The notes under the pieces are model-generated. The model saw only the letters and a program-made list of their open reading frames with translations. It ran no database searches and had not been told where the DNA came from. 64,000 nt of DNA from positions 1 to 64,000 of the forward strand of contig JANQHR010000149.1 in NCBI GenBank assembly GCA_028282585.1, in the 5' to 3' direction. The number at the start of each line of letters is the position of its first letter. The stretch's first letter is position 1. A program made the translations under genes and the position numbers. This document shows, piece after piece, positions 5,484 to 60,275 of this stretch. This DNA is from Bacteroidales bacterium (lineage in GTDB: Bacteria; Bacteroidota; Bacteroidia; Bacteroidales; UBA12077).

Positions 5484-6788
5484 TTATTCGTTCTGTTCCA
5501 GAAAACCACCGGTCAATCTGGTTAAAGTTGTATTTGAATATATCAGGTTATAAATGGATTGCAATTGATTAATTGACGAATTCAGGTAATATAATTGTAT
5601 ATCTCGGTAATTAAATGAGTTTATGGCACCGGTCTTAAATCTCTCTTCCGCAATTTGCAGGTTCAGTTTTGCCGCCTCTAAGCTTTCATTTGCAACATTT
5701 AACAGTACCTTTCTTAGATTATAGGTCTCAAATTCATTATAAAGCTGATTAGTTAAACTGTGCTTTATCTCTTCCGTTTCTATCTGTGTAATTTGCTCAT
5801 TAATTTTGGCTATTTCAACCGCACTTTGTCTGTTACCTCCTTGATAAATATCATAAGATATGGTTACATTACCATAAGGAGTTAAAGTTTCGGTATAAGT
5901 TTCACCTGAACCAGAATTTATCCATAAATACGAATTATCGATTCCTGCAGATAAACTTACTTTTGGGTAATATGATCCTTTCTGATACTTAATCTCGTCT
6001 TGTTGTAACAACAAATTGGTATATTGATTTTTCAACGTTTGATTATTTGTCATCATCTTATCCATCAAATCTCCGAGAATAAATTCAGTTGTATCGGAAC
6101 TAAATTCATCAGTAAAATTCCATAATACTGTTGGTTGCTCTCCTAAAAGAAAGTTAAGGTTTCTAACAGCATTTCGCACAACTACTTCCTGATTTAAAAA
6201 TGAGGCTTTATCATCCAAAAAAATGTTCTTTGCTAACAAAACATCGTACGTAAGCGAGCTTCCTAATTCAAGTTTGGTTTGCTCATAATCATATCTATCC
6301 TCAGATAATTTCATTACTTCACGCAGTACCTCCAGTCTTTCCTTTTGCAATAGAGTATTATAATAAGCCATCACTACATCCTGAATCATATTCTCGACAG
6401 TTACACCATAACCACCTTTTGCAATTTCTTCCAGTTTTTCCAGTTTATCTTTAGTGATGTTAACTTTAAAACCATTGAATATAGTCCAATTAAGACCTAC
6501 ACCACCTAATATACGATTAGTTGTTGTATTATCTATTAATTCCTCGCTGTTTAAAGATGTAACATCAAAACCTATGGTAGGATACCGTCCTGCATTACCC
6601 CAAGTATTATTTATTTCAGCAATTTCAACATCCGATTTCGAAATGATAATACCATAATTATTTTCTAATGCTTTTTCTAAAGCATCGGACAAGGACAAAG
6701 ATTCTTGCGCAATACTTGCACTAGCAAGCGATAAAAAGCTTGTTAAAAAAACTAATTTTAAACTTAATCTTAGCCTATTCATCTTCAT
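5484..6788 (-). CDS. TolC family outer membrane efflux protein (start uncertain, 6782-6806)
   Basis: Signal peptide, LSLSDALEKALENN, OEP repeats, downstream of the RND gene. Confidence 0.9.
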   Translation of the reverse strand: MKMNRLRLSLKLVFLTSFLSLASASIAQESLSLSDALEKALENNYGIIISKSDVEIAEINNTWGNAGRYPTIGFDVTSLNSEELIDNTTTNRILGGVGLNWTIFNGFKVNITKDKLEKLEEIAKGGYGVTVENMIQDVVMAYYNTLLQKERLEVLREVMKLSEDRYDYEQTKLELGSSLTYDVLLAKNIFLDDKASFLNQEVVVRNAVRNLNFLLGEQPTVLWNFTDEFSSDTTEFILGDLMDKMMTNNQTLKNQYTNLLLQQDEIKYQKGSYYPKVSLSAGIDNSYLWINSGSGETYTETLTPYGNVTISYDIYQGGNRQSAVEIAKINEQITQIETEEIKHSLTNQLYNEFETYNLRKVLLNVANESLEAAKLNLQIAEERFKTGAINSFNYRDIQLYYLNSSINQLQSIYNLIYSNTTLTRLTGGFLEQNE

Positions 6789-23526: not shown

Positions 23527-26385
23527 TTAAAATTGAAGAAGAAATTCGTTCAAATTATCATTTCTGTCAATTTCCAACTTCTTTCTAAGGCGGTATCTGC
23601 TAATTTCAACTCCACGAACAGTAATATTCATTAACGGAGCAATCTCTTTGGTCGATAAATTCATTCTAAGATAAGCAGATAAACGTAAATCTTTAGAAGT
23701 TAGAATAGGATATTTTGCCTTTAACCGTTTCAAAAATTTCTCATGCACCCGATCAAAATAATCTTCGAAAACTTTCCAGTTTTCTTCATTATCGATATCT
23801 CTATCAATCTTTCTGATTACATCTTTTACATCTCCGGTTACCAATTTATTTTTCTCTGCATAAGCCTTAATTTTCTCTAGCTCTTCCTTTAGTTCCGTTA
23901 AAAACTGATTCTTTTTAATAACTCCCATCGTTGAGTTAGCTAATTCCTTAGATTTGTATAAATTGTCGATTCTTAGCTTTTCGTTTCTAAGTTTTACAAT
24001 TTCCTGCTGCTTTTTTAGGTTTTCCTGTATTTGAGTTTGCTCTTTTCTATAAAGAATTTCCTCTTGCTCCTTTTGTAATTTTTGTTTTAAATTCTTCGTA
24101 TGATGGCTTATTCTTTTTCTGATGAAAATAATTATCATGACAAATAATAAAACGTATGTAATTTTAGAGTATATAGTTAAATACCACGGGGGAAGCACAG
24201 TAAAACTATATATTGCAGGTGTACTTTCTTCACCTGATTTATTAATTGACCTTACGATAAATTTATATTCTCCCTTTGTTAGGTTGGTATATTCTTTTAC
24301 GGTTTCATTATTCCATTGTGGCCACTTTTCATCAAAACCATGTAAAAAAGTTGCATATTTTACTGAATTATGTTTACTACACCCTGCAGAATAATAAAAT
24401 TTGATTGAAGTGCCATATTTTATTCCTTTATCAATGTCTCCATACTGTACCCAATTAACTGTTTTCTCATTACCCGTTAACGTTTTTACTTTACCCTTAG
24501 GAGATGTAATAATAATCCTTCTAACCCTGTTGGCAGAATAAGTTCCGTTATATTTCATCCCTAAATTATATCCCAGAAAACCTTCTTCCTGGCCTATAAT
24601 AAGAAAAGTACTATCCAGACTAAAAATATTCTCATAATCAATTGGATATTTATCGTTTGCAAACTCGGTTAAACTATAATGTAATCTTTTAGCTCCTTTA
24701 TCAGAAATGGTATAACAATGCATTTCTCCATTTCCAAACATCCACCACCGATTAAATCTGTCAATAATTATATTTGATGGTATTCTTTTCTCCTTATATA
24801 TGGATTTAAATTTTGCCGTATCTTTATAAAAACCTTGAGCCTTATTATATAAGTAGATACCGCTATCCGCGACAAAATAAACTTCACCTTTATACTTTAT
24901 TACCTGTTTTAGTTTATTATTAAATTCTATTCGATCAAAAGTTCTTAGATTTTCAATTTCGGTTAAATCATTATTAATACCAAACCTGTACAAACCATTT
25001 TCAAATTCTGCCCAAAAATTATTTTGCTCATCTTTTATAATATTTCTGGTATTCCCATTTATACCTTTTAATAACCTAACATACTCAAGTTGTTTATCAT
25101 GCTTTAACAAAAGTAATCCGACAGGAGATCCTGATATATAGTAATTATTGTTGTCATTAATTTTAGCTAAGTTCCATCCTCCGGGATAAAATGTTACTTG
25201 TTTAATCTGTTTATTATCCCACGAATATATCCCACCGGGACTTCCAAAATATAAAATATCATTTATTAAGTGTAGTCCCCACACGTGCCCATCAAATAAT
25301 TTAATAAACTCAAGGTTATCTTTAGAATTTTTTTGGGAATAATATAATCCCTGGCTTGTTGCAAAATATAATGTGTTTTTATAAAATGTTGAAGCATATC
25401 CTGTTCCAATACCATGATGGTTGTTAAATTTTGTAAAAGGAAAGTTTAGTCTTATGGATGAGATTCCTGAAGCTGTTCCAATCCACAAGTTATTCCAATA
25501 ATCCTTAAAAACAGAAAATACGGTATTATTTACAAGTCCTTCTTCATAGCTATATTTCTTAAAAATATCGCCCTTACTATTAAAAAGTAAAACACCACTA
25601 TAGTAAGTTTTTAAAGCGTATGTGGTATCATCAATTTGATCTATACCGTGTAATTTAATTTGATTTAATTTTGATATAATCTGTTCGCTTAAACTTAATT
25701 TATTTAGCTCCAAATTATATATTCCAACCTCCTCCATTAAAACATGCAGTTGATTTTTGTAATTTAAAAATCCTACAACCCTTTTGTTCTTGATTTGCTC
25801 ATTATTATTGATCAATTTAAGTTTATTTTCAACCAATTGATAAACTCCTTCTTCTTCAGAATAAAAATATAGCTCATCATCCAACTTTTGATAGTAAATA
25901 AAATCGTGCGAGGTTTCTAAAATGCGTATATTTTCCGGTGTATTAATAATTATTTCTTTACCGAGAACATAAATGATTCGATCTTTAATATTAAAAACTT
26001 TTGCAAACCTAAATTTTTTTAAGTCTTTCTCGGTGGTAATAATCTGGTTTAATGATTTATAAGTAATCGTATTTGTAGAATCGGGCACTAGTTTTCCTAT
26101 TCCTTTGCTTCCTGCCACGTAAACTACGTCATTAGAATCAGCAGCCAAAGATGTTATTGCAAATCCGCTATATATCTTGTTCCAGTTTTCTCCATCAAAC
26201 TCAATTATTCCTGTTTTATCACCGGCATATAACAACCCATCTTTTGTTGTAACAAGAGAATAAATTCTGCTGCCCCCTTCGTAAGCTTCTGCTTTAAAGT
26301 TTCTAATAATAGGCATTCCCTCATTTATGGCAAAAGCGTAAGTTGTTCCAATTAAAAAAATGAAAAAACTTATAATAACGCGCAT
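23527..26385 (-). CDS. Membrane-spanning regulator: beta-propeller + Y_Y_Y + TM + LuxR-type HTH
   Basis: NLWIGTASG, KEYTNLTKGEYKFIVRS, PPWYLT, LSTKEIAPLMNITVRGVEISRYRLRKKL. Confidence 0.9.
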   Translation of the reverse strand: MRVIISFFIFLIGTTYAFAINEGMPIIRNFKAEAYEGGSRIYSLVTTKDGLLYAGDKTGIIEFDGENWNKIYSGFAITSLAADSNDVVYVAGSKGIGKLVPDSTNTITYKSLNQIITTEKDLKKFRFAKVFNIKDRIIYVLGKEIIINTPENIRILETSHDFIYYQKLDDELYFYSEEEGVYQLVENKLKLINNNEQIKNKRVVGFLNYKNQLHVLMEEVGIYNLELNKLSLSEQIISKLNQIKLHGIDQIDDTTYALKTYYSGVLLFNSKGDIFKKYSYEEGLVNNTVFSVFKDYWNNLWIGTASGISSIRLNFPFTKFNNHHGIGTGYASTFYKNTLYFATSQGLYYSQKNSKDNLEFIKLFDGHVWGLHLINDILYFGSPGGIYSWDNKQIKQVTFYPGGWNLAKINDNNNYYISGSPVGLLLLKHDKQLEYVRLLKGINGNTRNIIKDEQNNFWAEFENGLYRFGINNDLTEIENLRTFDRIEFNNKLKQVIKYKGEVYFVADSGIYLYNKAQGFYKDTAKFKSIYKEKRIPSNIIIDRFNRWWMFGNGEMHCYTISDKGAKRLHYSLTEFANDKYPIDYENIFSLDSTFLIIGQEEGFLGYNLGMKYNGTYSANRVRRIIITSPKGKVKTLTGNEKTVNWVQYGDIDKGIKYGTSIKFYYSAGCSKHNSVKYATFLHGFDEKWPQWNNETVKEYTNLTKGEYKFIVRSINKSGEESTPAIYSFTVLPPWYLTIYSKITYVLLFVMIIIFIRKRISHHTKNLKQKLQKEQEEILYRKEQTQIQENLKKQQEIVKLRNEKLRIDNLYKSKELANSTMGVIKKNQFLTELKEELEKIKAYAEKNKLVTGDVKDVIRKIDRDIDNEENWKVFEDYFDRVHEKFLKRLKAKYPILTSKDLRLSAYLRMNLSTKEIAPLMNITVRGVEISRYRLRKKLEIDRNDNLNEFLLQF

Positions 26386-26564: not shown

Positions 26565-26615
26565 AAAATACCAACAATTAGGTATTGTCCGTCCGAAATA
26601 GAATTTGAACATTTG
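26565..26615 (+). promoter_or_regulatory. 23-bp box 1 plus -7 element
   Basis: AAAATACCAACAATTAGGTATTG, 20-nt spacer, AACATTTG. Confidence 0.7.
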
Positions 26616-26619
26616 TATC

Positions 26620-26982
26620 ATGAAAATCTCATTAAGAGACATATTTAAAAAGGCAGGGTTTATTATCATGATATGTTTTGTTGGTCTAATGATAGCCAAC
26701 AAAGTTATGTATACGCATATTCATAAACTTGAAGATGGCAGCGTTGTGGTCCATGCCCACCCTTATGATAAGTCCGAGAATGAGAATTCAGGAGAAACAC
26801 ACCATCATGTTAAAGCAGAACTATTCTTTTTACAAAGTTTAGAACTTCTGTTTTATATGGCAATCTTATCTGGTATTTTATACCTGGGATTTTTAGTTTT
26901 AGAAATACTTTCTTACTCTTTTGTTTTATATAAGAGCAATAATTTATCGTTATCATTAGGCAGGGCCCCTCCTTGTAACTAA
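26620..26982 (+). CDS. His-cluster membrane-anchored leader ORF with C-terminal RAPP motif
   Basis: TM segment, HIH-x4-G-x4-HAHPY-x10-THHH, GRAPPCN; paralog of 59904-60275. Confidence 0.8.
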   Translation: MKISLRDIFKKAGFIIMICFVGLMIANKVMYTHIHKLEDGSVVVHAHPYDKSENENSGETHHHVKAELFFLQSLELLFYMAILSGILYLGFLVLEILSYSFVLYKSNNLSLSLGRAPPCN

Positions 26983-27119
26983 TTCCTTACAATTTTATAG
27001 GTTTTAATTTTAATTGATGCATGAAAAGCTACTCGCATGTGCATCAGTCTTTTACTCAGCTGTAATCATTATAAATGATTATGCTAAAATTAATATCTCA
27101 TTATAAATAACGATTAGTT

Positions 27120-27464
27120 ATGAGTAATTACTTAAGCCAAACAAAAAACGGACGTATTTTTCGATGTGCCTCATGCGATAAAATCCACATTGAATTTAAT
27201 AATATAAACTTCAATTTCAATGATAAGGAGTTTGAGCGTTTTGCAAGTTATTTTGATGATTTGGACGGTGAGTATTGGGAAAACATGAACTTTCAAATTA
27301 ACTACCGCAGAAAAATTATTATTCCGGTAGGCCACAAAAACATTAATTTCTTATTAAATAAAGAAGAATTGAATGAGCTAAAAAGCCTTTTAGCCAATGC
27401 AAATATTTATAACAAACCATTAAAACTCGTTAAGAATTTTAAGTACTCATTTTGTAATAACTAA
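27120..27464 (+). CDS. DUF6686-like protein
   Basis: CxxC..IHIEFNNINFNF, LNKEELNELKSLL. Confidence 0.65.
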   Translation: MSNYLSQTKNGRIFRCASCDKIHIEFNNINFNFNDKEFERFASYFDDLDGEYWENMNFQINYRRKIIIPVGHKNINFLLNKEELNELKSLLANANIYNKPLKLVKNFKYSFCNN

Positions 27465-27470
27465 ATTAAA

Positions 27471-27977
27471 ATGAAAAAAGTAGGAATATTTTACGGTTCA
27501 TCAACCGGTAACACAGAAACAGCAGCCAATCAAATACAACAAGAACTAGGAACTGATATGGCTGATGTTAAAGAAGTAATAGACGCAGGTGCAGGCGACC
27601 TTGAAGTATATGCAAATATTATTTTGGGGGCCTCGACCTGGGGCATTGGAGATATGCAGGATGATTTTGACGTTTTTCTAACAGAATTAGAAAATGCAAA
27701 TCTTGAAGGGAAAAAAGTTGCCATTTTTGGATTAGGCGATCAGGATACTTATCCTGACTCCTTTGTTGATGCAATTGGAATAATATATGAAACAATAGAA
27801 GGTAAAGGTTGCGAAGTTATCGGAAAAATATCAAAAGATGGTTATAGCTATGATGTATCGAAAGCCGAAATCAACGGTGAGTTGGTTGGTTTACCATTAG
27901 ACGAAGAGAACCAGGGAAATTTAACAAATGAAAGAATCAAGAACTGGATTCAGCAAATAAAAGGACAGTTTAATTAG
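27471..27977 (+). CDS. fldA: Long-chain flavodoxin
   Basis: IFYGSSTGNTE, GASTWG, FGLGDQ..YPDSFVDA, GLPLDEEN. Confidence 0.95.
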   Translation: MKKVGIFYGSSTGNTETAANQIQQELGTDMADVKEVIDAGAGDLEVYANIILGASTWGIGDMQDDFDVFLTELENANLEGKKVAIFGLGDQDTYPDSFVDAIGIIYETIEGKGCEVIGKISKDGYSYDVSKAEINGELVGLPLDEENQGNLTNERIKNWIQQIKGQFN

Positions 27978-28106: not shown

Positions 28107-28502
28107 ATGAAAATTTCATGTACAGATTATAAATCCGGTGATATGCAGATTTTAATGCATCATATTTACGAATTTAAAAAGGGCCTAAGAAACCTGGTGT
28201 TGCATACAATGAATAAAAGTGAGCAATACCTAGCCGAAGATTTATTGATGCGCAAAGGTATCTGCTATAAAATTCAAGAAGTTAATGCATCCAAAATCAA
28301 TGTGTTTTTTGGTAAAATTCAATGTGTAAGGATTGTCGAATCTTTTGGTAATAAATCATTGGCCAATATCTCTGATGAGCAAGATTTCATATTGGGAGTC
28401 ATGCTTGGATATGATAGAACACAGCAATGTGATAGATATATAAAACGGAAAAATTTAAACGCGGAGTTTATTAACAGTCAGGATCTTGCCGTGGCAATTT
28501 AA
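28107..28502 (+). CDS. DUF2023 family protein
   Basis: HHIYEFKKGLRNLVL, NVFFG, EQDFILGVMLGYD..QCDRY; usual neighbour of fldA. Confidence 0.85.
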   Translation: MKISCTDYKSGDMQILMHHIYEFKKGLRNLVLHTMNKSEQYLAEDLLMRKGICYKIQEVNASKINVFFGKIQCVRIVESFGNKSLANISDEQDFILGVMLGYDRTQQCDRYIKRKNLNAEFINSQDLAVAI

Positions 28503-28679: not shown

Positions 28680-28820
28680 ATGAGCCAGATCATCCAAATT
28701 AAGCAAACAACTAAAAATGTAAGAGTATTTAGCGTTGGAACCCAAAACTTTTTTATTGAAGACTGGAATAAAAACCAAACTGAAACCAATTTAAAAACTC
28801 TCAAAAAGAATATAAAATGA
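28680..28820 (+). CDS. Putative 46-aa small ORF overlapping the TBDR start (ATGA)
   Basis: MSQIIQIKQTTKNVRVFSVGTQNFFIEDWNKNQTETNLKTLKKNIK; A-rich upstream region; TGA 28818-20 overlaps ATG 28817. Confidence 0.4.
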   Translation: MSQIIQIKQTTKNVRVFSVGTQNFFIEDWNKNQTETNLKTLKKNIK

Positions 28821-30982
28821 AAAAACTTGCATTATTGGTATTCATGTTGATTTTTGGGACGGTTTACGCTAATAATCCAGAAATATTAGTATTAGATAAA
28901 GAAAATAAAGAACCCATTCCTTATGCCAATATTTGCTTTGAAGAAATTAATACTCAAGCAAAATTCCATACAATAACAACTGTACATGGAATTGCAAAAA
29001 ATCCGGTTCAGAATCAGTCCATTGTAGCCATATCCTTTGTTGGTTACAAAACAATTATCGATACAATAAAACAAGATGAGTCTAGAGAATATCTAATGGA
29101 ACAAGATTTATTCAACATGGAGCAGGTTGTTGTTACCGGTACCAGGACCAGAAAAACTCTAGGTAAAAGCCCAATTTTAACAAAAATTGTTACAGGGGTA
29201 GAATTACAGGAAGCCGGAGCAGTTACTGCCCTTGATGCTTTAGAATATTCAATGCCGGGAGTACAGTTCTCACCTGATGGGCATGGCGATAATCTTCAAA
29301 TACAAGGGCTGGATAACGACTATATACTTGTTCTGGTAAATGGTGAAAGAATGGTTGGCGAAACCAGGGGTAATGTAAACTTCAGCAGACTTAATGCAGA
29401 AAACATAAAACAAATAGAAATTGTAAATGGAGCTTCTTCAGTTTTATATGGATCTAATGCAATAGGTGCTGTAATTAATATCATAACTAACGATAACAAT
29501 TTTACAAAATCTTTTTCTGCTACAGTGAGTTCCAGGTATACGAAAAATAATACCTTACTTATATCATCAAATGTAGGTATATCGTTAAATAAGTTAAATA
29601 TACATTTAAATGGATTTAGAAGCAGTACAGATGGATATGACCTGACACCCCAAACTCCCGCTTCATACACTGTTGATAAATATACAGACTATTCTGGCAA
29701 GCTTAAATTAGGTTATAAGTTTAACGATAAAATTACCTTATCTACACAAGGGGTTTACTTTCGGCATGAGATAAATAATCCTGAAAAAAGTACTAAATCA
29801 ACACATAATTTAAATAAAAACTATACCCTCGGCGGAAAATTATCCATACAGGTAAATGAAAAGCAATCTATTGAATTTAGAGCAAATACGGACATTTATA
29901 ACTCATATACCGTTTACGAACGACGAAACGATGAAAAAGAATTAAAGTCGGACTATCAGTTTTCATCATTCTTTTTAATGGATACTTATACGCCCTTAAG
30001 TAATCTTGAAATTATAATCGGGACAGAATTAAACTTAGAAAATATCTATTCAATTCAACTATTTGGAGAAACAGGAGACAAGGATAAAGATTCATATGAT
30101 TACAATGCATTTTTACAATTAGACTATGAACTAATTGAAGATATTGTATTAGTTGGGGGATTGAGATATACATACCATACAAATTATGGTAATCATATTA
30201 CTCCAAAATTATCATTAATGTATTCTCCCAAAAGATTTAAGTTCAGAGGGAATATAGCAAAGGGTTATAAGGCCCCTACTTTAAAAGAACTTCACTATAA
30301 TTTCGATCACAGCGGGATGTTTATGATTTATGGAAATCCTGATTTAAAACCCGAAAATGCATTCTACACTTCTGTTTCGGCCGAATATACCAGAAATTTA
30401 TTCAATATCTCCATAAATGCTTATAACAATTCAATAAATGATAAAATAGAGTCTGTCGACCGTGTTAACAGCGAAACAGATATGCTTGAAAAACACTATA
30501 TGAATGTAAATGAAGCAGTGTTAAGAGGCATAGAAAGCTATGTTTCAATTAGCCCTTTAAAAAATACGATGTTAAAAACCGGTTATGCTTATTCTGATAC
30601 AGAAGAAAAATCAACTGGTTTGCAGCTTTATGGAAATAGTGTTCATACCGGAACAGTTGCTCTTTCGTATAAAATTTCTAAAATAAAATTTCCTTTAAGC
30701 GTAAATATTAGCGGGCGAATTTCGTCTGGCAGATTATTTCAATATCAGGAAACAGAAGAAAATTCTGATACAGGGGTCGAAGAAACTACCATTTATAAGG
30801 ATGAAAGCGATGCTTATTCTATGTGGAAATTTACTTATAACCAACAATTTAAATTAAGAAATAAATTAACTATTCAGGCTTTAGCCGGAGTTAATAATAT
30901 ATTCGATTATGTAGACACCAAAGACCTGGCTGTAATTGACCCAGGTAGGAGGCTCTTTTTTGGAGTTAAATTTATTTTATAA
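28817..30982 (+). CDS. hmuR: TonB-dependent heme receptor (HmuR-like)
   Basis: VVVTGTRT, IEIVNGASSVLYGSNAIGAVINIIT, YKAP, HSG..GNPDLKPE; adjacent to hmuY/hmuS. Confidence 0.8.
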   Translation: MKKLALLVFMLIFGTVYANNPEILVLDKENKEPIPYANICFEEINTQAKFHTITTVHGIAKNPVQNQSIVAISFVGYKTIIDTIKQDESREYLMEQDLFNMEQVVVTGTRTRKTLGKSPILTKIVTGVELQEAGAVTALDALEYSMPGVQFSPDGHGDNLQIQGLDNDYILVLVNGERMVGETRGNVNFSRLNAENIKQIEIVNGASSVLYGSNAIGAVINIITNDNNFTKSFSATVSSRYTKNNTLLISSNVGISLNKLNIHLNGFRSSTDGYDLTPQTPASYTVDKYTDYSGKLKLGYKFNDKITLSTQGVYFRHEINNPEKSTKSTHNLNKNYTLGGKLSIQVNEKQSIEFRANTDIYNSYTVYERRNDEKELKSDYQFSSFFLMDTYTPLSNLEIIIGTELNLENIYSIQLFGETGDKDKDSYDYNAFLQLDYELIEDIVLVGGLRYTYHTNYGNHITPKLSLMYSPKRFKFRGNIAKGYKAPTLKELHYNFDHSGMFMIYGNPDLKPENAFYTSVSAEYTRNLFNISINAYNNSINDKIESVDRVNSETDMLEKHYMNVNEAVLRGIESYVSISPLKNTMLKTGYAYSDTEEKSTGLQLYGNSVHTGTVALSYKISKIKFPLSVNISGRISSGRLFQYQETEENSDTGVEETTIYKDESDAYSMWKFTYNQQFKLRNKLTIQALAGVNNIFDYVDTKDLAVIDPGRRLFFGVKFIL

Positions 30983-31000
30983 CAATTAAATACTAACCAA

Positions 31001-31630
31001 ATGAAAAAAACAACATTATTATTAAAGGTACTGTTAATCGTATTAACAACCTCGTTATTTGTAGCATGCGACGAGGATGATGATCCCAAACCTGCAGAAA
31101 ATGATACACTTAGTCTTTATACGAAAGATTATACTATCTGGCACTATTTTTCTTTTGAAAATGGAGTTATAGGCACCGGCTCGGCCGATCCAACTGAATC
31201 GGATGATGCAGACTGGAAAGCCAGAACAGATTGGGATCTTGCATTTCATTACAAGGACGTAAGAACAAACAGTGGTAAATCCGGAGATGGACAAGGTGGT
31301 ATGCTGGAAGCCACTCAAACAGATTTTGCCCTTGTAACTGAAGCTCCAACATCAGGTTATACAGTAGATGATGATCTTGATATAAGATTAACTCCGGCAA
31401 TGCCACCTGTTTATGTTACATCAACAGCAAATTCTGTTTGCGATGATTGGGCCTCTTATGATCATGCTGAAGGTGCTTGGGTATTTGTAGAAAAAGTTTT
31501 TATTGTTAGAACTGCGGATGGGAAATATGCCAAAATATGGTTAAAAAGCTTCCTTGATGATGAAGATAATTCTGGAACTATCACCATGGACTATGCATAC
31601 CAATCAGATGGAAGTACAAATCTAGAATAG
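31001..31630 (+). CDS. hmuY: HmuY family hemophore-like lipoprotein
   Basis: Lipobox FVAC-DEDDD, WHYFSF, WDLAFH..VRTNSGKSG, VRTADGKYAKI. Confidence 0.9.
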   Translation: MKKTTLLLKVLLIVLTTSLFVACDEDDDPKPAENDTLSLYTKDYTIWHYFSFENGVIGTGSADPTESDDADWKARTDWDLAFHYKDVRTNSGKSGDGQGGMLEATQTDFALVTEAPTSGYTVDDDLDIRLTPAMPPVYVTSTANSVCDDWASYDHAEGAWVFVEKVFIVRTADGKYAKIWLKSFLDDEDNSGTITMDYAYQSDGSTNLE

Positions 31631-31652
31631 GTTTCATTCAATTTTAACAAGT

Positions 31653-31710
31653 GTGGTTTCCATTAGATTCGGCTTTTGGTAGCTAGATAATTCTGGAAAT
31701 CACCTTTTTA
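31653..31710 (+). terminator. Stem-loop between hmuY and hmuS
   Basis: GTGGTTTCCA...TGGAAATCAC followed by CTTTTT. Confidence 0.5.
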
Positions 31711-31721
31711 TATTTAAAAAA

Positions 31722-34700
31722 ATGAAAAAAAGATTTTTAACAACAGTAAGTATTTGTTTCTTAATCATAATATTGTTCTTTTTATATAAAAGTAACATAG
31801 CTCCAACAAAAATTGCAGTCGTCTCATTTCCGGATTTTACCATGGAGAAAATGGAACGTTCAAACGATAACAAGTGGATTAAACTGCAAAATATTGAATT
31901 AGGCGAATTAGATAAGATTCATAAATATGATTTGGTTCTGGTAAGGGGTCATGGAGTTCGCATATCGCCCGAACAACTTGATTTATTAAGAAAAGCATCA
32001 GCTAAAGGAACCAAGATCTATGTAACGGATATAACAAATCCCGAATACGATGTTACAAATATCAGGGGTAAAGAACTCGATTACATTACCGATTTACTGG
32101 ATAACAAATGTGCTATAAATTTTAAAAATCTTTTTAATTATACCCGAAAAAATATTGATGGGAAAAGATGGTTTAATAAACCCTATGGTGAAGCATTTAT
32201 TCTACCGGAAGATTTTTATTTTCATGGAGAAGATGATCAAATTTTTGCAACCATTGAAGAGTATGAAATATTTTACAAACAAAAGGGGTATTATAAAGAA
32301 AATGCTCCAAGGGTAGCATTACTTGCAGGAAATATAAACATACAAAACTCAAACAGGGAACATACCCTTAAATTAATTCAAGGATTAGAGGAACAAGGAT
32401 TAAACGTTTATCCTATCCGATCCTTTGGTAAAAAGAAATTAGAGCTTTTACAAAATTGTGATCCCGATCTTGTAATACTTCGCCCACACGGCCGCCTGGC
32501 GATGGGGCAACAAAATAAGGCCATTGATTGGCTTAAAGAAAAAAATATTCCTGTACTTGCTCCGCTTACGGTTTTCGATGAATATGACAAATGGCTTACC
32601 AACCAACAAGGAATGTACGGCGGAATGCTTTCCATGAGTATTGTTATGCCTGAATTAGATGGAGCAGTAGTTCCATATGCAATTGTTTCCAAATTTAAAG
32701 GAGAATCGGGTAACCTGATCTTTGATGCTATTCCAAACCGCGTTGATAATTTTTGTAAGATAACTGCTAACTGGCTCAAACTTCAAACAAAAAATAATGC
32801 AGATAAAAAAATAGCTATTTATTACTTCAAGGGACCTGGTAATAATGCACTTGTTGCTGCCAATATGGAAGTAATACCATCGCTTTATAATGTTTTAAAA
32901 TCTTTACAGAAACAAGGATATAACCTAAATGGGCTACCTACAACCAAAGAAGCATTCCAGGAAATAATGATGAAAAAAGGTCCCGTTTTAGGAACTTATG
33001 CGCTTGGTGCATTTGATGAATATTTAAAAACCGGTAATCCTGCTTTAGTTGAAGCGACAGAATATGAAAATTGGTGTAAAGAAGAATTACCGGAAGATTT
33101 ATATCAACAAGTAGTAGATAAATATGGAAAAGCTCCCGGGAAATATATGAACGTTGAAAAAGATAGTAAGCAATATATTGCCATTACAAGGGTACAATTT
33201 GGTAATGTTTGTCTGTTACCACAACCCCTGCCAGGAATTGGCGATGATACTCAACAATTAGTACATGGTGCAAACGTAGCACCTCCTCATACCTATATAG
33301 CTTCTTATTTATGGACAAGTAAAGATTTTGGGGCCGATGCTATTTTTCATTTCGGTACACACGGAAGCTTAGAGTTTACTCCTGGAAAACAAGTTGCTTT
33401 ATCAGACTATGATTGGTCAGACCGTTTAATTGGCAATACACCTCACTTTTATATTTATACGATAAGCAATATAGGAGAAGGAATAATTGCTAAACGTAGA
33501 AGTTATGCTACTTTATTAACTTATCTTACTCCACCATTCATGAAAAGTGGATTACATGATGATCTAGAAGAATTATACCAAAAATTAGATAAATATAATA
33601 GCTTGCCTGATGGCCCTGTAAAAGAACAGTACGCTAAATCAGCTAAATTATTAGCTGAAAAACAAAATATCCATAGAGCTATTGGCTTAGATTCTTTAAA
33701 ACCATATGGTTCTGAAGAAATGTATAAAATACACGAATATCTTGAAGAAATTGAGGAGGAAAAGGTTACTGCTGGCCTTTATACTATGGGTATCGCATAC
33801 AAACCGGAAAAATTAAAAGAAACTGTAACTCTTATGGCCCAAGATCCTATTGCCTTTGGGTTGGCCGAACTTGATGGAATGCGCGGAAAAATTGATGCAA
33901 ATAAATACCAGGATAATTTTTATGTGTCCAAATATTACCGCCCTAAAGCAAAGAGAATAATTCAAAACATTCTTAACGAATATGATATTAATAAAACTCT
34001 GGGATCTTTACTTACGAATGAAGAACAAGCTAAGGCGCATCAGTGGAAAGAAAAAAATACTTCCCCGGATTTTATATCAGTAATGATGTCTTCTTCATCG
34101 TCTAAAGGATCCGAACAAACATTGCTTAAAGAAAATCTTCCAACACTTATCATAGATTTATGTAAGGACGAAAAGAATAAAAACTACATTCTGAACCTTA
34201 AATCAGAGAAAGTATTTAATAAATCATCTCAAATGCTGGATGCTTCATACAGAGCCAAAGCCCTAAAAATGGCTGAAAAAATGAAAAAAATGGCTCCTGA
34301 GATGTATGAGACCGTTTCTATCGCTAATCAAAAAAAGATGTTGCAGTTGCTTGATGCAATGCAGGATAGCTTAATTAAAACAGAAGTATTTAAACTTTTA
34401 GAGGATAAAACCCTTGCCGAAAAAATAGAAAAGCAAAAAATAGAAATACTTAAAGAAAAGGCAGCATTAATATCTACTCCGGAATATCTTTCAATTATCC
34501 AGAAGTTGTTTAATACCAGTGATTCTGAATTAATTTCAAACAAAAGTAAAGAAGAGCTTAAAACGACATTCGAAATTTTAACTTTCTACAAGAATAATAA
34601 GGCATCCATTAAATATTGTGATTATGACATTGCTCAAACACTTACAAACCTAATCAAAAGATCAGATTGGGATAGTAAAATACAAAGTTCTTTAGCAAGT

Positions 34701-36416
34701 ATAAATAATCAAATAGATAAAATTAATAAAGAGGAAGCCCGGTTCGCTATAACTGTTCTGCAAGTTGAAAGAAGTATTCGGTCAGTAAAAAAATATTATA
34801 ACAACTTAAGCAATAGCCCAAACTCTGAATTGTTTTCAATTGATAATGCATTGCATGGCGGTTATACGGAGCCATCATCCGGCGGAGATCCAATCGTAAA
34901 TCCGGAGTCTTTACCAACAGGGCGTAATATGTATTCTGTTGATGCAGAACGCACACCTTCTGATGAAGCATGGACCGTAGGAGTGCGGTTAGCCAAATCA
35001 TTACTTGACAATGAATATAAAGCAAAGGGTCATTATCCGCATAAGGTTAGTTTCACTTTGTGGGCAACAAATTTTATATCAACAGAAGGTGCTACCATAG
35101 CACAAATCTTGTATCTTTTAGGTGTTGAACCTGTACGAGACGGATTTGGTTCTGTACGAAACCTGCGTTTAATCCCAATAGAAGAGTTAGGAAGACCACG
35201 AATCGATGTTGTAGTTCAAACATCAGGACAACTAAGAGATTTAGCCGCTTCGCGTTTAAACCTAATTCGTAAAGCGGTATTGATGGCTTCACAATCGAAA
35301 GATGTAGATTCCATGAACTACGTGCAAAAGGGAATACATGATGCTGAAAAATTCATGCTTGATAAAGGTTTCTCTCCCCTTGATGCAAGGAAATATGCAT
35401 CAAAAAGAGTCTTTGGCGGAGTAAACGGAAATTATGGAACAGGTATCATGGGATTAGTTGAAAAAGGAGATGCCTGGGATGATGAAAGTCAGGTTGCACG
35501 AAACTATTTAAATAATATGGGGGCAGTTTATGACGAAGGTGAAGATTGGGGAACTTTCCGAGCAGGAATTTTCGAAGCTGCTTTACAAAACACCGAAACC
35601 GTTGTTCAGCCAAGAGCAAGTAATAACTGGGGCCCTCTCAGTTTAGATCATGTTTACGAATTTATGGGTGGTTTAAACATGACCGTAAGAAATGTAACAG
35701 GCAATGATCCAACTGCTTACTTCAATGATTTTAGAAATATCAGTAATCCCAGAATGCAAGGATTAAACGAAGCTATAGGAGTTGAAACCAACTCTACGGT
35801 ATTTAATCCAAAGTTTATTGAGGAATTGCTAAATGGCGAAGCCAGTTCAATGGAAACTTTCGCTGAAACATTCAGGAACACATATGGCTGGAATGTTATG
35901 AAACCAACAGCAATTGACGATCATATATGGAATACTTATCATGAAGTTTATGTAAAAGATAAATATAACCTAAATGTTCAGGATCGGTTTGAAGAAGAAA
36001 ATCCTTATGCGCTACAGGAAATGACGTCTGTAATGATGGAAACTGCGCGTAAGGGATATTGGAAAGCAAACGAACAACAGTTAAAAGAAATAGCCCGGTT
36101 ACACGCAGAGCTGATTAAAGAGCATAAAGCGGGTTGCAGCGGATTTGTCTGTGACAATGCCAAATTAAAAGACTTTATTGCCAGTAAACTTGATCCTCAG
36201 CAAGCAGAACAGTACAATAATGATATAAAAGATGTAAGAGAAGTAAAAATTGAAGAGAATAAAGAAAGCCTAGTTCTTAAAAAAGAAGAGCAAAAGCAAA
36301 AACCCGATAAGGGGCAAAATAAACAAGAACCAAAAAAAGATAACGGAATAGTTATTATTTCTTTAATCATAATAATTTTTATGGTCATGTTTTTTATCAG
36401 AAAAAGAAAGAAATAA
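31722..36416 (+). CDS. hmuS: CobN/Mg-chelatase family protein (HmuS-type)
   Basis: MPELDG, HFGTHGSLEF.PGK, LPTGRN, RPRIDVVVQTSG, DHVYEFMGG; N- and C-terminal TM segments. Confidence 0.9.
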   Translation: MKKRFLTTVSICFLIIILFFLYKSNIAPTKIAVVSFPDFTMEKMERSNDNKWIKLQNIELGELDKIHKYDLVLVRGHGVRISPEQLDLLRKASAKGTKIYVTDITNPEYDVTNIRGKELDYITDLLDNKCAINFKNLFNYTRKNIDGKRWFNKPYGEAFILPEDFYFHGEDDQIFATIEEYEIFYKQKGYYKENAPRVALLAGNINIQNSNREHTLKLIQGLEEQGLNVYPIRSFGKKKLELLQNCDPDLVILRPHGRLAMGQQNKAIDWLKEKNIPVLAPLTVFDEYDKWLTNQQGMYGGMLSMSIVMPELDGAVVPYAIVSKFKGESGNLIFDAIPNRVDNFCKITANWLKLQTKNNADKKIAIYYFKGPGNNALVAANMEVIPSLYNVLKSLQKQGYNLNGLPTTKEAFQEIMMKKGPVLGTYALGAFDEYLKTGNPALVEATEYENWCKEELPEDLYQQVVDKYGKAPGKYMNVEKDSKQYIAITRVQFGNVCLLPQPLPGIGDDTQQLVHGANVAPPHTYIASYLWTSKDFGADAIFHFGTHGSLEFTPGKQVALSDYDWSDRLIGNTPHFYIYTISNIGEGIIAKRRSYATLLTYLTPPFMKSGLHDDLEELYQKLDKYNSLPDGPVKEQYAKSAKLLAEKQNIHRAIGLDSLKPYGSEEMYKIHEYLEEIEEEKVTAGLYTMGIAYKPEKLKETVTLMAQDPIAFGLAELDGMRGKIDANKYQDNFYVSKYYRPKAKRIIQNILNEYDINKTLGSLLTNEEQAKAHQWKEKNTSPDFISVMMSSSSSKGSEQTLLKENLPTLIIDLCKDEKNKNYILNLKSEKVFNKSSQMLDASYRAKALKMAEKMKKMAPEMYETVSIANQKKMLQLLDAMQDSLIKTEVFKLLEDKTLAEKIEKQKIEILKEKAALISTPEYLSIIQKLFNTSDSELISNKSKEELKTTFEILTFYKNNKASIKYCDYDIAQTLTNLIKRSDWDSKIQSSLASINNQIDKINKEEARFAITVLQVERSIRSVKKYYNNLSNSPNSELFSIDNALHGGYTEPSSGGDPIVNPESLPTGRNMYSVDAERTPSDEAWTVGVRLAKSLLDNEYKAKGHYPHKVSFTLWATNFISTEGATIAQILYLLGVEPVRDGFGSVRNLRLIPIEELGRPRIDVVVQTSGQLRDLAASRLNLIRKAVLMASQSKDVDSMNYVQKGIHDAEKFMLDKGFSPLDARKYASKRVFGGVNGNYGTGIMGLVEKGDAWDDESQVARNYLNNMGAVYDEGEDWGTFRAGIFEAALQNTETVVQPRASNNWGPLSLDHVYEFMGGLNMTVRNVTGNDPTAYFNDFRNISNPRMQGLNEAIGVETNSTVFNPKFIEELLNGEASSMETFAETFRNTYGWNVMKPTAIDDHIWNTYHEVYVKDKYNLNVQDRFEEENPYALQEMTSVMMETARKGYWKANEQQLKEIARLHAELIKEHKAGCSGFVCDNAKLKDFIASKLDPQQAEQYNNDIKDVREVKIEENKESLVLKKEEQKQKPDKGQNKQEPKKDNGIVIISLIIIIFMVMFFIRKRKK

Positions 36417-54456: not shown

Positions 54457-56793
54457 ATGCAGTCTAAAATCTGTTTTTTATCTTTTTTAATATTACTGAT
54501 AACCATATCGACAAATATATCAGCACATACCCTAATCACAGGTACTGTAATAGATGCAGAAACCAATGAACCAATGGTTGGCGTAAGCGTCGCCATTAAA
54601 GAAACTCAGCAAGGAACTATTACCGACGAAGAAGGTAAATACAGTATTTCAGTACATCACGGAAAATATACGGTAGTATTCTCTTATATTGGTCGCGAAA
54701 GTTCTGAAAAACAAATCAATTGTTATAAACCAGAGCTGGTACTCAACATAATACTTAAACCATCGGCACTGAAATTAGATGAAGTAACGGTAACAGCTAA
54801 GTCCAAGGCCCGGCAAGTAAGAGAGCAAGCAATTCCTGTTTCTGTAATTTCTCTTGATAAGATTCAAGGAAGCGTTAGTAATGTTAGCGAGTTATTAAGT
54901 AAAACAGCCGGAGTAAAAATTCGTAGTACGGGTGGCGTGGGAAGCGCTTCACGTATTTCGGTCAGAGGGCTTGAAGGCAAACGTGTAGGTTTCTTTGTCG
55001 ATGAAACACCACTAAGCGAACAGTCCGACCATATAGGCTTTAATGAGGTTCCGCTTGATATCATTGAACGCATTGAAATTTACAAAGGTATTGTACCTGC
55101 AAAATTTGGGGGCTCAGCAATCGGGGGAGCGGTTAATATAGTGCTGAAAGAATATCCTCCAAAATACATAGACTTTTCGTATGGCTTGCAAACATACAAC
55201 ACACATAATGCCAATATTCTATTTAAACGGAATAACCAAAATTCAGGAATAGAATATGGAGTTGCAGGCTTTTATACTTATTCTGATAATAACTACACAT
55301 TTAAAGCACCCAATAATAGCGAACTGAAAATAACAAGAGACCACGACTCCTACGATAAAAAACTGTTCGGGGGCGTTTTTACGGCAAAAAAATGGTGGTT
55401 CGATGAAGTCAGTTTTGACTTTGCCTTCATATCAACGAAAAAGGAAATACAAGGAATTACTCATAATATACAAGAAGCCGAAAATAGTTCAAACGCTTTC
55501 TTCATAGCCAATGAAACAGAAAAAGATAATTTTTTGATTGAAGGCCTGGATTTAGACTTCAAGTTATCTTATGCTTACACTATTTACAAATTCCGTGACA
55601 AAGCCATGCAACGATACAATTGGGATAAAACCACTTATTTGCCAGTTACAGAATTTGGCGGAGAAATAGGCAATGACGCCAATGATGCATACAATCAAAA
55701 ACATACAATTTTACAAAAAACAAACCTGAACTACATCTTAAACGAATTTAGCTCCTTGAATCTGAATACAGTCTATAGTCATGCTTATGGAATCCCAAAA
55801 GATACCTTAAAAGATAAATCATTAGGATATAAAACGAATTATAACAGTCGAATGAACAGTTTTATATCGGGACTGAATTACGAGATTAACTTGTTCAGGA
55901 AAAAGCTTACAAACTCTGCAACAATCAAATATTATTATTACGACATAAATACAACACTGGTTGAGATGTTTTCTAAAGATGTGAAAGCACACGATTACCA
56001 TAAAAATGATTTTGGCTTTAGTAATGCCCTCAGATACAAGTTTACACCAAGATTTTTGATAAAAGCATCGTACGGTTACGATGTACGCCTTCCTTCTGAA
56101 CACGAATTATTGGGCGATGGGTTTATGACCATGCCGGCAGGTGATTTGGAACCAGAAAGGAACAGTAGTTTCAACTTCGGGTTTATGTACGACCATACAA
56201 ATAAACGAAGCAACAGATTCCAGTTTGAGATGAATTTCTTCTATATGAAATTAGAAAATATGATACGTTATGTAGGGAGTTTCCTGCAATCGAATTACGA
56301 AAACTTTGGGGAAATGAGAACAATAGGTGGAGATATAGATGTAAAATATGACCTTACCTCATTCATTTATATTTATGGCAATGCAACCTATCAGGATCTA
56401 AGAGATACACGAAAATATGAGGCTGGTTCAGCAACTAAAAAGAATCCATTTGAAGGAGACCGGATGCCAAATATCCCCTATTTATTTTCTAATGTCGGGG
56501 TCGAATTGCACAAAAAGAATCTCTTTGGCGGAAAAGAACAGGAAAGCAAGTTCTATTTCGAAAACTCTTTTGTAGAAGAATATTTCTATGATTTTGAGCA
56601 AACAGAATTAGACAAAAGACGTATTCCCCGTTCTTCAATCTTTAATATGGGCCTGGAACATAGCTTTAAAAATAAAAACATAATGATTGGCCTTCAGGCC
56701 AACAATATTTTCGACTCAGAACAAATAACAATTTTCAACCGCCCCATGCCGGGGCGAACGGGGGGAATCAGGCTTCGATATATCATAAAATAA
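54457..56793 (+). CDS. TonB-dependent receptor (siderophore-type)
   Basis: LDEVTVTA, GVKIRSTGGVGS, IERIEIYKGIVPAKFGGSAIGGAVNIV, PMPGR. Confidence 0.92.
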   Translation: MQSKICFLSFLILLITISTNISAHTLITGTVIDAETNEPMVGVSVAIKETQQGTITDEEGKYSISVHHGKYTVVFSYIGRESSEKQINCYKPELVLNIILKPSALKLDEVTVTAKSKARQVREQAIPVSVISLDKIQGSVSNVSELLSKTAGVKIRSTGGVGSASRISVRGLEGKRVGFFVDETPLSEQSDHIGFNEVPLDIIERIEIYKGIVPAKFGGSAIGGAVNIVLKEYPPKYIDFSYGLQTYNTHNANILFKRNNQNSGIEYGVAGFYTYSDNNYTFKAPNNSELKITRDHDSYDKKLFGGVFTAKKWWFDEVSFDFAFISTKKEIQGITHNIQEAENSSNAFFIANETEKDNFLIEGLDLDFKLSYAYTIYKFRDKAMQRYNWDKTTYLPVTEFGGEIGNDANDAYNQKHTILQKTNLNYILNEFSSLNLNTVYSHAYGIPKDTLKDKSLGYKTNYNSRMNSFISGLNYEINLFRKKLTNSATIKYYYYDINTTLVEMFSKDVKAHDYHKNDFGFSNALRYKFTPRFLIKASYGYDVRLPSEHELLGDGFMTMPAGDLEPERNSSFNFGFMYDHTNKRSNRFQFEMNFFYMKLENMIRYVGSFLQSNYENFGEMRTIGGDIDVKYDLTSFIYIYGNATYQDLRDTRKYEAGSATKKNPFEGDRMPNIPYLFSNVGVELHKKNLFGGKEQESKFYFENSFVEEYFYDFEQTELDKRRIPRSSIFNMGLEHSFKNKNIMIGLQANNIFDSEQITIFNRPMPGRTGGIRLRYIIK

Positions 56794-56807
56794 GAAAGGA
56801 GATATAA

Positions 56808-57629: not shown

Positions 57630-57677
57630 TACACTCACATCAAATAAGCTTAATATCAATTTTTAAACAGAAATAAT

Positions 57678-59686: not shown

Positions 59687-59903
59687 TAAAATTTAGTAAT
59701 TTTTAATACGGTTTAATTACCAACCTTTGTATTACTTCCTCAAGAAGTTAACAAAAAACAGATTACCTTAAACTAATTTGATTTAACAGTATTAATATTC
59801 TATAAGAAATAGAAAATAATAATCATTTAAATTAAACTAATCATAATAATTTTAGTCTTACAACATTAATTAACGCAAATTATATCTAAGATTTGTCGCC
59901 AAA

Positions 59904-60275
59904 ATGAAGAGGAATTTTTTAAACAAAATAAATCGCTTTATTTTATGTCTGTTTATCGGATTGATAACCGGATATATTTTCAATTCTATATTTTTTCTTC
60001 ATAGCCATACGGATCTTAATGGTAAGAAAATTCAGCACGCCCACCCCTATAAAAAAAGTTCGGATAACAACTCCTTACCAACTCACCATCATACTTCAGA
60101 TGAAATCGTTTTTTTAGAATTTAGTTCAATACTATTTGAATTTACAAATGAAATTGTGTTAGAACACTTTTCTAGTTTCGTTAGCACAATTTCTTCTTAT
60201 GAATATTCGTTTAGCAAGAATTCGTATTTCTTCACTAAAAGTGCACGTGGTCCGCCAAATTTAATTTCAGCATAG
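59904..60275 (+). CDS. His-cluster membrane-anchored leader ORF with C-terminal RGPP motif
   Basis: TM segment, HSH-x4-G-x4-HAHPY-x10-THHH, ARGPP; paralog of 26620-26982. Confidence 0.8.
   Translation: MKRNFLNKINRFILCLFIGLITGYIFNSIFFLHSHTDLNGKKIQHAHPYKKSSDNNSLPTHHHTSDEIVFLEFSSILFEFTNEIVLEHFSSFVSTISSYEYSFSKNSYFFTKSARGPPNLISA

Follow-up and report, generated by a model that had tools for sequence, protein, structure and literature searches.

The closest described counterpart of the element reported here is CruR of Bordetella pertussis (Bp2923, DUF2946), a copper-responsive upstream open reading frame (uORF) that lies before the gene for the TonB-dependent receptor (TBDR) BfrG/CrtA (PMC9426467). 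Our element is P0001, a 120-amino-acid (aa) open reading frame (ORF) that starts at position 26620 of a 64,000-nucleotide stretch from a Bacteroidales bacterium (GCA_028282585.1, contig JANQHR010000149.1); this whole stretch is called the window below. In CruR, a CXXC motif is followed, after 45 residues conserved to within 1 to 2, by RAPP three residues from the end of the peptide, and a 162-bp spacer then leads to the TBDR gene. Copper relieves the stall and Rho then terminates transcription, and adding five residues to the spacing impairs regulation, as set out in the text of PMC9426467, which also mentions SecM. Arrest by CruR was shown in vitro in the PURE system (PMC12992588). The latter study, by Fujiwara et al. 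(2025), reports, for Gram-negative phyla at large, an enrichment of small uORFs with RAPP or RGPP upstream of TonB receptors. Its “TonB-related” class resembles the family described here in having fewer than 300 aa, a C-terminal RAPP/RGPP, a localization signal and a position upstream of a TBDR gene. The class is defined by the motif and the downstream annotation; the main text of the paper has no His-cluster family, fixed ruler or RNA helix, and almost all of its uORFs have signal peptides, whereas our family has transmembrane (TM) segments. ApdA, ApdP and RQH (PMC10987492, PMC10951233) likewise share with our family an R-[AG]-P-P core near the C terminus, an N-terminal localization signal and a variable sequence before the core, but sec or yidC genes lie downstream of them, in place of the metal-uptake genes and conserved ligand motif found here. 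CutF of Rhodobacter capsulatus, which senses copper as a nascent exported chain and is encoded upstream of cutO, also combines an exported leader, a metal motif and a proline-rich C-terminal stalling sequence; it differs in the multicopper oxidase encoded downstream and in its phylum (PMC9973294).

The source genome holds three copies of the element: P0001 (26620), P0002 (59904) and one on contig C92. We consider it probable that all three are RAPP-type arrest peptides which act in cis as leaders and sense a transition metal. We read them as peptides that would work like CruR and other RAPP arrest peptides while standing outside DUF2946, cousins of CruR in design but not in sequence. With CruR they share a small exported or membrane-anchored leader, an invariant ligand motif at a fixed distance from RAPP (45 residues, ±1 to 2, in CruR; 51 ± 1 in our family), RAPP a few residues before the stop codon, a long spacer and a downstream TBDR, so that the parallel with CruR drawn in an earlier note on this DNA, made from the letters alone, held up. 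The differences are a six-His cluster in place of CXXC, the lack of a DUF2946 match (P0001 and P0002 at E ≤ 0.1, 70 family members at E ≤ 0.01), a second hydrophobic segment between sensor and arrest motif in most members, short leaders, a home in Bacteroidota where CruR is mostly proteobacterial, and a metal that is probably not copper. A helix over the next start region in about 40% of loci also suggests a translational output, where that of CruR is Rho-dependent termination. UORFs with RAPP or RGPP before TonB receptors are already published; the His-type variant is new. The earlier note had known of no characterized His-type version in Bacteroidota and left novelty to a search. Our literature search found no description of a His-type RAPP uORF in Bacteroidota, although the supplementary tables of PMC12992588 and PMC9426467 may list such ORFs, whereas the class as a whole cannot be called new, having been described in PMC12992588.

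The His-cluster family and its RxPP motif

The features of the two copies in the window are as follows (KD19, best 19-residue Kyte-Doolittle mean; AF2, AlphaFold2; pLDDT, predicted local distance difference test):

26620-26982, + strand: P0001 uORF, His-cluster protein with R-A-P-P, 120 aa, ATG at 26620, stop at 26980-26982
26653-26712, + strand: P0001 TM1, residues 12-31, preceded by a Lys/Arg-rich N terminus; KD19 2.12; AF2 helix 5-31, pLDDT 86-91
26716-26808, + strand: P0001 His cluster, residues 33-63; AF2 β-hairpin 33-36/42-45, loop of low confidence
26821-26931, + strand: P0001 second hydrophobic helix, to about residue 104; KD19 2.36; AF2 helix 65-106, pLDDT 88-93
26962-26973, + strand: P0001 R115-A-P117-P118, codons AGG GCC CCT CCT
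26983-27119, + strand: spacer of 137 nt after P0001, with two internal hairpins
59904-60275, + strand: paralog P0002, 123 aa, every motif at the P0001 residue numbers
60246-60257, + strand: P0002 R115-G-P-P118, codons CGT GGT CCG CCA, RGPP five residues before the stop
60420-62810, + strand: TBDR gene after P0002 (CarboxypepD_reg, Plug, barrel), starting 144 nt past it

The motifs of P0001 run in the order H33-I-H35, KLED, G40, SVVV, H45-A-H47-P-Y, DKSENENSGE and T60-H61-H62-H63. Residues 64-114, 51 in number, separate this cluster from R115-A-P-P118, after which come Cys, Asn and the stop. This layout, given in the earlier note as a 120-aa ORF with an N-terminal TM segment, a His motif, 51 residues and RAPP two codons before the stop, could be read directly from the translation. 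Its claim of identical motif spacing in the 59904 paralog was also borne out, each motif of P0002 having the same residue number as in P0001 despite 32% identity (37/116). The C92 copy has the same layout and ends in RGPP plus six residues. The three paralogs are thus only 29 to 33% identical, yet their motif positions are identical, and P0002 and the C92 copy lie 144 to 146 nt upstream of a TBDR gene.

A word-index search returned only 5 close relatives, and the family became visible only through a profile search, in which a profile built from seven sequences was run against 1.84 billion cluster representatives. At E ≤ 1e-3 it matched 1510 of them and at E ≤ 1e-10 571, and their lengths were nearly all close to 120 aa. 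The family is large, unnamed and centered on Bacteroidota. Pfam and NCBIfam yielded no family model for P0001 or P0002 (Pfam E ≤ 0.1), none of 70 family members scanned against Pfam had a meaningful match, and a sequence search of the PDB found no relative (best E = 0.53). Family members are labeled hypothetical protein in public records; one Parabacteroides distasonis sequence occurs on 526 contigs.

All conservation, spacing and hydrophobicity figures below refer to the best 150 of the 1510 representatives. H33, H35, H45, H47, P48, H61 and H63 are conserved in 100%, G40 in 99% and N27 in 96%; D39 and D54 are also conserved. No conserved Cys was found, and the invariant ligands are the six His. 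The motif of CutF, by comparison, is said to be Cys-based. At the other end of the protein, R115 is conserved in 97% and P117 and P118 in 99% each. The earlier note had made conservation of R[AG]PP in homologs one of the points on which its proposal could fail: RxPP was present in 148/150, with x being A (106), S (20), G (15), D (2), E (1) or P (1), plus 3 KxPP, so that R[AG]PP itself accounts for 121/150, RSPP for 20 and RDPP for 2. The motif was missing in 2/150 representatives, one of them truncated. Published mutational work found robust arrest by RAPP and RGPP, and RSPP and RDPP to be partly permissive and also depleted from proteomes (PMC12992588); the natural spectrum at x (A, S, G and a few D) and the mutational one therefore agree. 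The Arg codons (AGG, AGA, CGT, CGC, CGG) and Pro codons (CCT, CCC, CCG, CCA) vary synonymously across loci, and selection therefore acts on the peptide, not on the RNA.

Linker length, for which the earlier note had also predicted conservation, proved nearly constant. The distance from HxHP to the Arg is 70 residues in 120/148 members and 69 to 71 in 141/148, and the gap fraction is 0.01 at all alignment positions from 74 to 118, though residues 79-113 are unconserved in sequence. The tail beyond PP, in turn, spans 1 to 20 residues overall (1 to 7 aa in 138/148).

A census of the whole source genome (4.89 Mb) showed how unusual the motif is. In 3214 ATG-initiated ORFs of at least 150 aa (1.35 million residues), RAPP, RGPP, RSPP and RAGP did not occur at all, while composition predicts 2.5, 2.8, 3.0 and 4.7 occurrences, respectively; RAPP, RGPP and RSPP jointly were seen 0 times against 8.3 expected. 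For the control tetrapeptide AGPP, 4 occurrences compare with 4.4 expected. R[AGS]PP lies no more than 20 aa from the C terminus in only five of 3461 small ORFs. Three are the His-cluster paralogs, one is a membrane ORF before another TBDR gene and one appears spurious; in this genome, then, the motif is restricted to small ORFs that neighbor TonB receptor genes.

A fourth, unrelated small ORF ending in RAPP lies on contig C16 at 98306-98698 (+ strand; L053:1807-2199). It encodes 130 aa from a TTG start, with a hydrophobic N terminus, a His/Cys-rich stretch, a CPVC motif and RAPP six residues before the stop, and has no Pfam match. It overlaps the end of a FUR-family regulator gene and lies 47 nt upstream of a CarboxypepD_reg-Plug TBDR gene, which is followed by two DUF4625 genes.

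Downstream genes and candidate metals

When species-representative genomes were scanned with a degenerate pattern, 33 loci emerged, in Bacteroidales, Prolixibacteraceae, Lentimicrobiaceae, Saprospiraceae, Cytophagales, several Parabacteroides (P. distasonis among them) and one KSB1 metagenome-assembled genome. RxPP could be placed near the end of the uORF in 32/33 loci, all but L037. The earlier note had proposed to test homologs for downstream TBDRs: a CarboxypepD_reg-Plug-barrel TBDR gene is directly next on the same strand in 26/33 loci, after spacers of 44 to 298 nt, and in L025 it follows one small ORF later. L012 reaches a contig edge. The partner receptors form one subfamily, most being 43 to 74% identical to the receptor at 60420. 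Genes past the pair are unrelated or on the opposite strand, and the unit is therefore a two-gene module. In an even sample of 400 other Bacteroidota species genomes, 13 had a match (the source genome has three copies), with [RK]xPP 2 to 8 residues before the stop in 12/13 loci and a homolog of the 60420 receptor starting about 60 to 270 nt downstream in 12/13. The distribution is thus patchy, as described for other arrest peptides (PMC10987492).

One locus, L040 (G141:C22), has the His motifs without RxPP; R-A-S-P stands at the equivalent place, and the frame runs on into the start of the receptor gene. This copy may be decayed or frameshifted.

Four loci head other genes. L005 and L006, the closest relatives of P0001, have DUF6686-FldA-DUF2023 downstream, in the order seen after 26620. 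The member at L027 (5935-12095) heads an efflux operon of OEP, a CusB-like HlyD_D23 protein and an ACR_tran RND pump, and that at L030 in the KSB1 genome (5995-10711) heads a 440-aa ORF of no recognizable type, ZnuA and two ABC-3 permeases. The genes downstream in the window and in the 33 loci encode TonB receptors and other metal-homeostasis proteins, with no Sec or YidC component among them. The genes that follow P0001 are:

27120-27464, + strand: DUF6686 gene, first after the uORF (profile match 1.3e-31)
27471-27977, + strand: flavodoxin FldA (profile match)
28107-28502, + strand: DUF2023 protein (profile match)
28817-30982, + strand: TBDR of an hmu-like cluster (profile match)
31001-31630, + strand: HmuY-family protein (profile match)
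31722-36416, + strand: CobN/Mg-chelatase family protein, 1564 aa (2.2e-300), which we take to be HmuS-like

The last three form an hmu-like heme cluster (28817-36416) on the same strand, downstream of fldA and DUF2023. The earlier note had placed P0001 at the head of an fldA-hmu region. It does precede DUF6686-fldA-DUF2023, but it is not directly before a TBDR gene.

The ligand set, which is all His plus conserved Asn and Asp and has no Cys or Met, together with the two outlier operons, favors Zn as the metal. The ZnuA/ABC-3 operon of L030 and the CusB/Czc-like RND efflux operon of L027 point to Zn or a neighboring divalent metal. The fldA-hmu context of 26620 suggests Fe or heme. Flavodoxin and Hmu proteins have roles in iron and heme starvation, and the position of 26620, L005 and L006 at the head of DUF6686-FldA-DUF2023 (and, further on, of TBDR, HmuY and CobN-like genes) would put these three members in that context. 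The partner receptor gives no substrate assignment, since the only similarity that a PDB search with it brought up was in the plug domain, to CirA, heme receptors and BtuB, with no close solved relative; receptors of the 60420 type are nearest to a heme-receptor model, far under its cutoff (110.8 versus 316.85 bits). In this subfamily the plug region has a consensus with two Cys (N-N-C-Q-N-C-G-F; C164 at least 90% conserved), which may be a metal site.

Two neighboring regions complete the surroundings of the copies in the window. A divergent gene at 23527-26385 (− strand), 234 nt upstream of P0001, encodes a 952-aa protein with Reg_prop and Y_Y_Y repeats and a weak GerE-type helix-turn-helix. 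Upstream of the 59904 paralog, on the same strand, 54457-58901 holds a CarboxypepD_reg-Plug receptor (778 aa), an LCM-family methyltransferase and a 407-aa ORF without a Pfam match.

Predicted membrane topology and transcript start, and pairing with the next gene

The N-terminal region reaches a KD19 of at least 1.6 in 97% of members, and Lys/Arg make up a fraction of 0.43 to 0.60 at positions 2, 6, 10 and 11, on the N-terminal side of TM1, from which an N-in orientation is predicted. The earlier note had treated the 51 residues after the His cluster as a plain linker. That picture has to be given up: a second hydrophobic segment with a KD19 of at least 1.6 follows H63 in 91% of members, at about residues 68-91, and Lys/Arg-enriched positions 92-96 come directly past it. 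Its hydrophobicity differs among the copies, with a KD19 of 2.36 in P0001, a marginal 1.48 in P0002 and a polar 0.84 in P0007, the representative nearest to the C92 copy. An AF2 model of P0001 with 70 sequences (mean pLDDT 76.5) consists of the two helices listed above, a β-hairpin bearing four of the His, a low-confidence loop and an unstructured tail. The mature protein is likely to have both termini inside and the His loop outside. The ribosome exit tunnel accommodates about 30 to 40 residues. At the stall, residues from about 85 to 118 would lie in the tunnel, the second segment at its exit or at the translocon, and the His loop beyond. A 51-residue ruler that spans tunnel plus membrane is compatible with a second helix and is one possible reading.

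The predicted start of the transcript depends on the position of the −7 box, for which TAnnTTTG has been described in Bacteroidota (PMC7366714). Three candidate elements lie before the two copies in the window:

26599-26607, + strand: TAGAATTTG, −7-like with one extra spacer base, ending 12 nt before the P0001 ATG
26608-26615, + strand: AACATTTG, 7/8 positions of TAnnTTTG, its last G 4 nt before the P0001 ATG
59887-59895, + strand: TAAGATTTG, −7-like with one extra base, its G 8 nt before the P0002 ATG

The near-leaderless start that the earlier note assigned to P0001 holds insofar as an element ends 4 nt before the ATG; that element is not an exact TAnnTTTG, the one detail in which the figures of the earlier note had to be amended. 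The boxes of 26620 and 59904 are both inexact, and the leader length at either is a prediction from sequence. An exact box ends 7 to 8 nt before a family-consistent start codon in 11/31 loci, including the C92 copy; with ATG starts, two further loci have a box 6 and 9 nt upstream, and in the Parabacteroides loci it lies 24 to 27 nt upstream. Only about 3.7% of Bacteroides thetaiotaomicron 5′ untranslated regions (UTRs) are shorter than 10 nt (PMC7366714), and very short leaders therefore seem to be a trait of the family. At several loci among L007, L010, L011, L013 and Parabacteroides the family-consistent start is GTG or TTG, and at L007, L011 and L013 the exact box ends 7 nt upstream of the start. 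Near-leaderless mRNAs with non-AUG starts would be unusual.

The P0001 spacer has no TTTG and therefore no TAnnTTTG. It has two internal hairpins, hairpins having been pointed out in the earlier note, and as a whole folds better than shuffled sequences (z = −2.9, 1 of 200 shuffles folding equally well); the spacer after the 59904 copy showed no excess structure (z = +0.33). A sigma-70 promoter scan, uninformative for Bacteroidota, gave 19 sites against 14.2 ± 4.1 in shuffles, and the one terminator-like site, inside fldA, compares with 1.0 expected by chance. RNA data were Logan contigs, which carry no expression levels, transcript ends or pauses. The P. distasonis homolog (L033) was covered by contigs in four RNA-labeled metatranscriptome runs from two studies, and two of these contigs (5944-6574 and 5983-6423) span the uORF, the spacer and the receptor start. 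They are compatible with co-transcription of uORF and receptor, short of proving one transcript. Positions 5853-5903 had no contig cover in the four runs, from which no inference can be drawn.

In the pairs SecM-secA, MifM-yidC2 and VemP-secDF2, the stalled ribosome reportedly opens a stem that hides the ribosome-binding region of the next gene. Shine-Dalgarno pairing plays little part in Bacteroidota, so the hidden element here would be the start codon and its flanks. At P0001, a 13-bp long-range helix joins two such arms:

26972-26984, + strand: 5′ arm, covering the last two bases of the Pro118 codon, Cys, Asn, the stop codon and 2 nt
27112-27124, + strand: 3′ arm, including the DUF6686 ATG (27120-27122)

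This helix (−12.6 kcal/mol) is present in the minimum-energy structure, and the P0001 end ranks first of 31 uORF ends for the DUF6686 start region. Its generality was assessed at 31 loci, with the start region taken as −22 to +12 and the uORF end as 30 nt from the first Pro codon. The uORF end paired with the start region better than 95% of windows of the same uORF in 11/31 loci and better than 95% of shuffles in 13/31, and in 9/31 (1.3 expected by chance) the best partner of the start region in uORF plus spacer lay within −3 to +15 nt of the first Pro codon. Cognate uORF end-start region duplexes averaged −7.42 kcal/mol against −4.96 for non-cognate pairs, a mean reached by 0 of 20,000 permutations (p = 5e-5); the same test on a control window taken from within the uORF gave p = 0.60. 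This permutation was used because MAFFT misaligned the 3′ arms of eight Parabacteroides spacers. In 8 loci the cognate end was the best of the 31, and in 13/31 it was among the best three, so that the uORF end is complementary to the next start region in about 40% of loci, 26620 among them. The duplexes have 10 to 20 bp, with the 5′ arm mostly at +3 to +20 from the P-site codon and the 3′ arm over the start codon in 8/13 loci and over −25 to −1 in the other 5. The arms differ between species with complementarity kept, L031 and L036 having two compensating differences per arm. Since about 15 nt beyond the P-site codon are protected by a stalled ribosome, most of the 5′ arm would stay single-stranded. 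The likeness to SecM, MifM and VemP is that no more than about 20 nt separate the predicted stall site from an arm pairing with the downstream start region; the differences are that such pairing occurs in only 13/31 loci, 59904 and C92 being without it, and that the proposed signal is metal rather than secretion activity.

A near-palindrome, TCATTAT-AA-ATAACGA, lies at 27098-27113, 7 to 22 nt before the DUF6686 start. In L005 and L006 its counterpart is a perfect TCATTAT/ATAATGA, and it is kept in the three loci while the other spacer sequence drifts. It resembles Fur-box half sites, and it could be an operator or part of an RNA switch.

Proposed mechanism and rival explanations

We propose that the uORF would be translated from an mRNA with little or no 5′ leader, as the −7 box position suggests. 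The nascent chain would insert TM1 with its N terminus in the cytoplasm and expose the His loop, and the ribosome would then stall at R115-A-P117 | P118, with Pro117 in the P site and Pro118 in the A site. That register is predicted from the conserved motif and from published RAPP biochemistry, namely the toeprints of ApdA, ApdP and CruR (PMC12992588). By analogy with CruR, the constant 51 residues past H63 would occupy the exit tunnel and the route to the membrane, and metal binding or folding of the His loop would pull the chain and relieve the stall, possibly helped by membrane entry of the second segment. While stalled, the ribosome would cover the last uORF codons and keep the next start site open; its release would let the site close. 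For an uptake gene the logic would be that, when metal is scarce, the stall persists and the receptor is on. In loci without the helix, such as 59904 and C92, the output may be Rho-dependent polarity, as in CruR.

A bolder version of this proposal is possible, though we hold it only tentatively. It envisages a nascent-chain metal sensor used across Bacteroidota, P. distasonis included, in which the His loop of a peptide made from a near-leaderless mRNA would read periplasmic Zn or another divalent metal during co-translational translocation, timed by the 51-residue ruler. The stalled ribosome would uncover the start codon of the TonB receptor gene, a purely translational switch unlike the Rho-based one of CruR, and the marginal second TM segment would make the peptide a natural force sensor.

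Several observations weigh against our reading. The pause, its relief and the metal are predictions from sequence, gene context and published RAPP biochemistry. In known peptides the residues immediately before RxPP contribute to arrest (PMC12992588); here that stretch is unconserved except for G114 (65%). A specific helix is lacking in 18/31 loci, including 59904 (rank 21), C92 (rank 10) and the two closest relatives of P0001 (L005, rank 13; L006, rank 28), and related loci are not independent, 8/31 being Parabacteroides. In partition-function calculations, masking the stall footprint clearly opened the start region (a rise of at least 0.15) in only 6/31 loci, against 0/31 for control masking, and the effect across the 31 loci was not significant (Wilcoxon p = 0.29). 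The P0001 start region itself was not opened (0.22 to 0.25), and a spacer segment can replace its 5′ arm. Applied to the member that heads the efflux operon at L027, the logic of the uptake genes would give the wrong regulatory sign. Finally, 91% of members have TM2, with moderate conservation in its first half (E67 0.68, L77 0.77, F78 0.69); the product could therefore be a stable two-helix membrane protein that has its own function.

A universal unmasking mechanism was also considered, and the same masking test (6/31 opened, p = 0.29) rules it out.

The strongest rival follows from the TM2 data. It takes the family for an ordinary two-helix inner-membrane metal-binding protein that acts in trans with the receptor, handing over or sensing metal, with RxPP as a structural or binding motif and the TBDR neighbor as mere operon membership. 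Two hydrophobic segments in a positive-inside pattern, a fairly confident AF2 hairpin (pLDDT 76.5), the conserved N27 (96%), the partly conserved TM2 and the company of one receptor subfamily (43 to 74% identity among most partners) would all suit such a protein. It would leave the exclusion of RxPP from all long ORFs of the genome without a reason, however, as it would the fixed His-to-RxPP distance over 35 preceding residues that drift without indels, followed by a tail free to span 1 to 20 residues. The residues tolerated at x are those that keep arrest, the 3′ end of the uORF co-varies with the start region of the next gene, and neither P0002 (KD19 1.48) nor the C92 copy (P0007, 0.84) has a convincing second TM segment. 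We regard this explanation as unlikely.

A leader peptide that arrests or couples translation, but reports membrane insertion or translation instead of metal, would be either a monitoring substrate of the Sec/YidC type or a case of plain translational coupling. Any terminating ribosome could melt the helix between uORF end and start region, and the hydrophobic segment ends about 24 to 32 residues before the last Pro, a distance at which, in force-profile work, membrane entry is reported to pull nascent chains. Such a leader would leave the six invariant His and the conserved N27, D39 and D54 without a role, and what lies downstream is TonB receptors, ZnuA-ABC, metal-type RND efflux and fldA-hmu, not Sec or YidC, so that we give this account little credence. 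That P0001 is a chance or annotation artifact, a spurious ORF in an AT-rich intergenic region, has in its favor the missing Pfam/NCBIfam model and the hypothetical protein labels, but is refuted by 1510 representatives with invariant residues, by paralogs of 29 to 33% identity with identical motif positions and by RNA-library contigs that cover a homolog.

Metal uptake in Bacteroidota is poorly understood, and translation initiation in this phylum is unusual. If P0001 and its relatives are metal-sensing arrest peptides, the principle of CruR, in which a nascent peptide senses metal through arrest relief, would extend to another ligand chemistry and another phylum, and possibly to another output mechanism. 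The regulation of a whole TonB receptor subfamily, including that of the gut commensal P. distasonis, would be explained. Three paralogs that differ in the hydrophobicity of the second segment under a strict ruler would offer a natural series on nascent-chain pulling force, and about 1500 sequence clusters now labeled hypothetical would gain a name and a predicted role.

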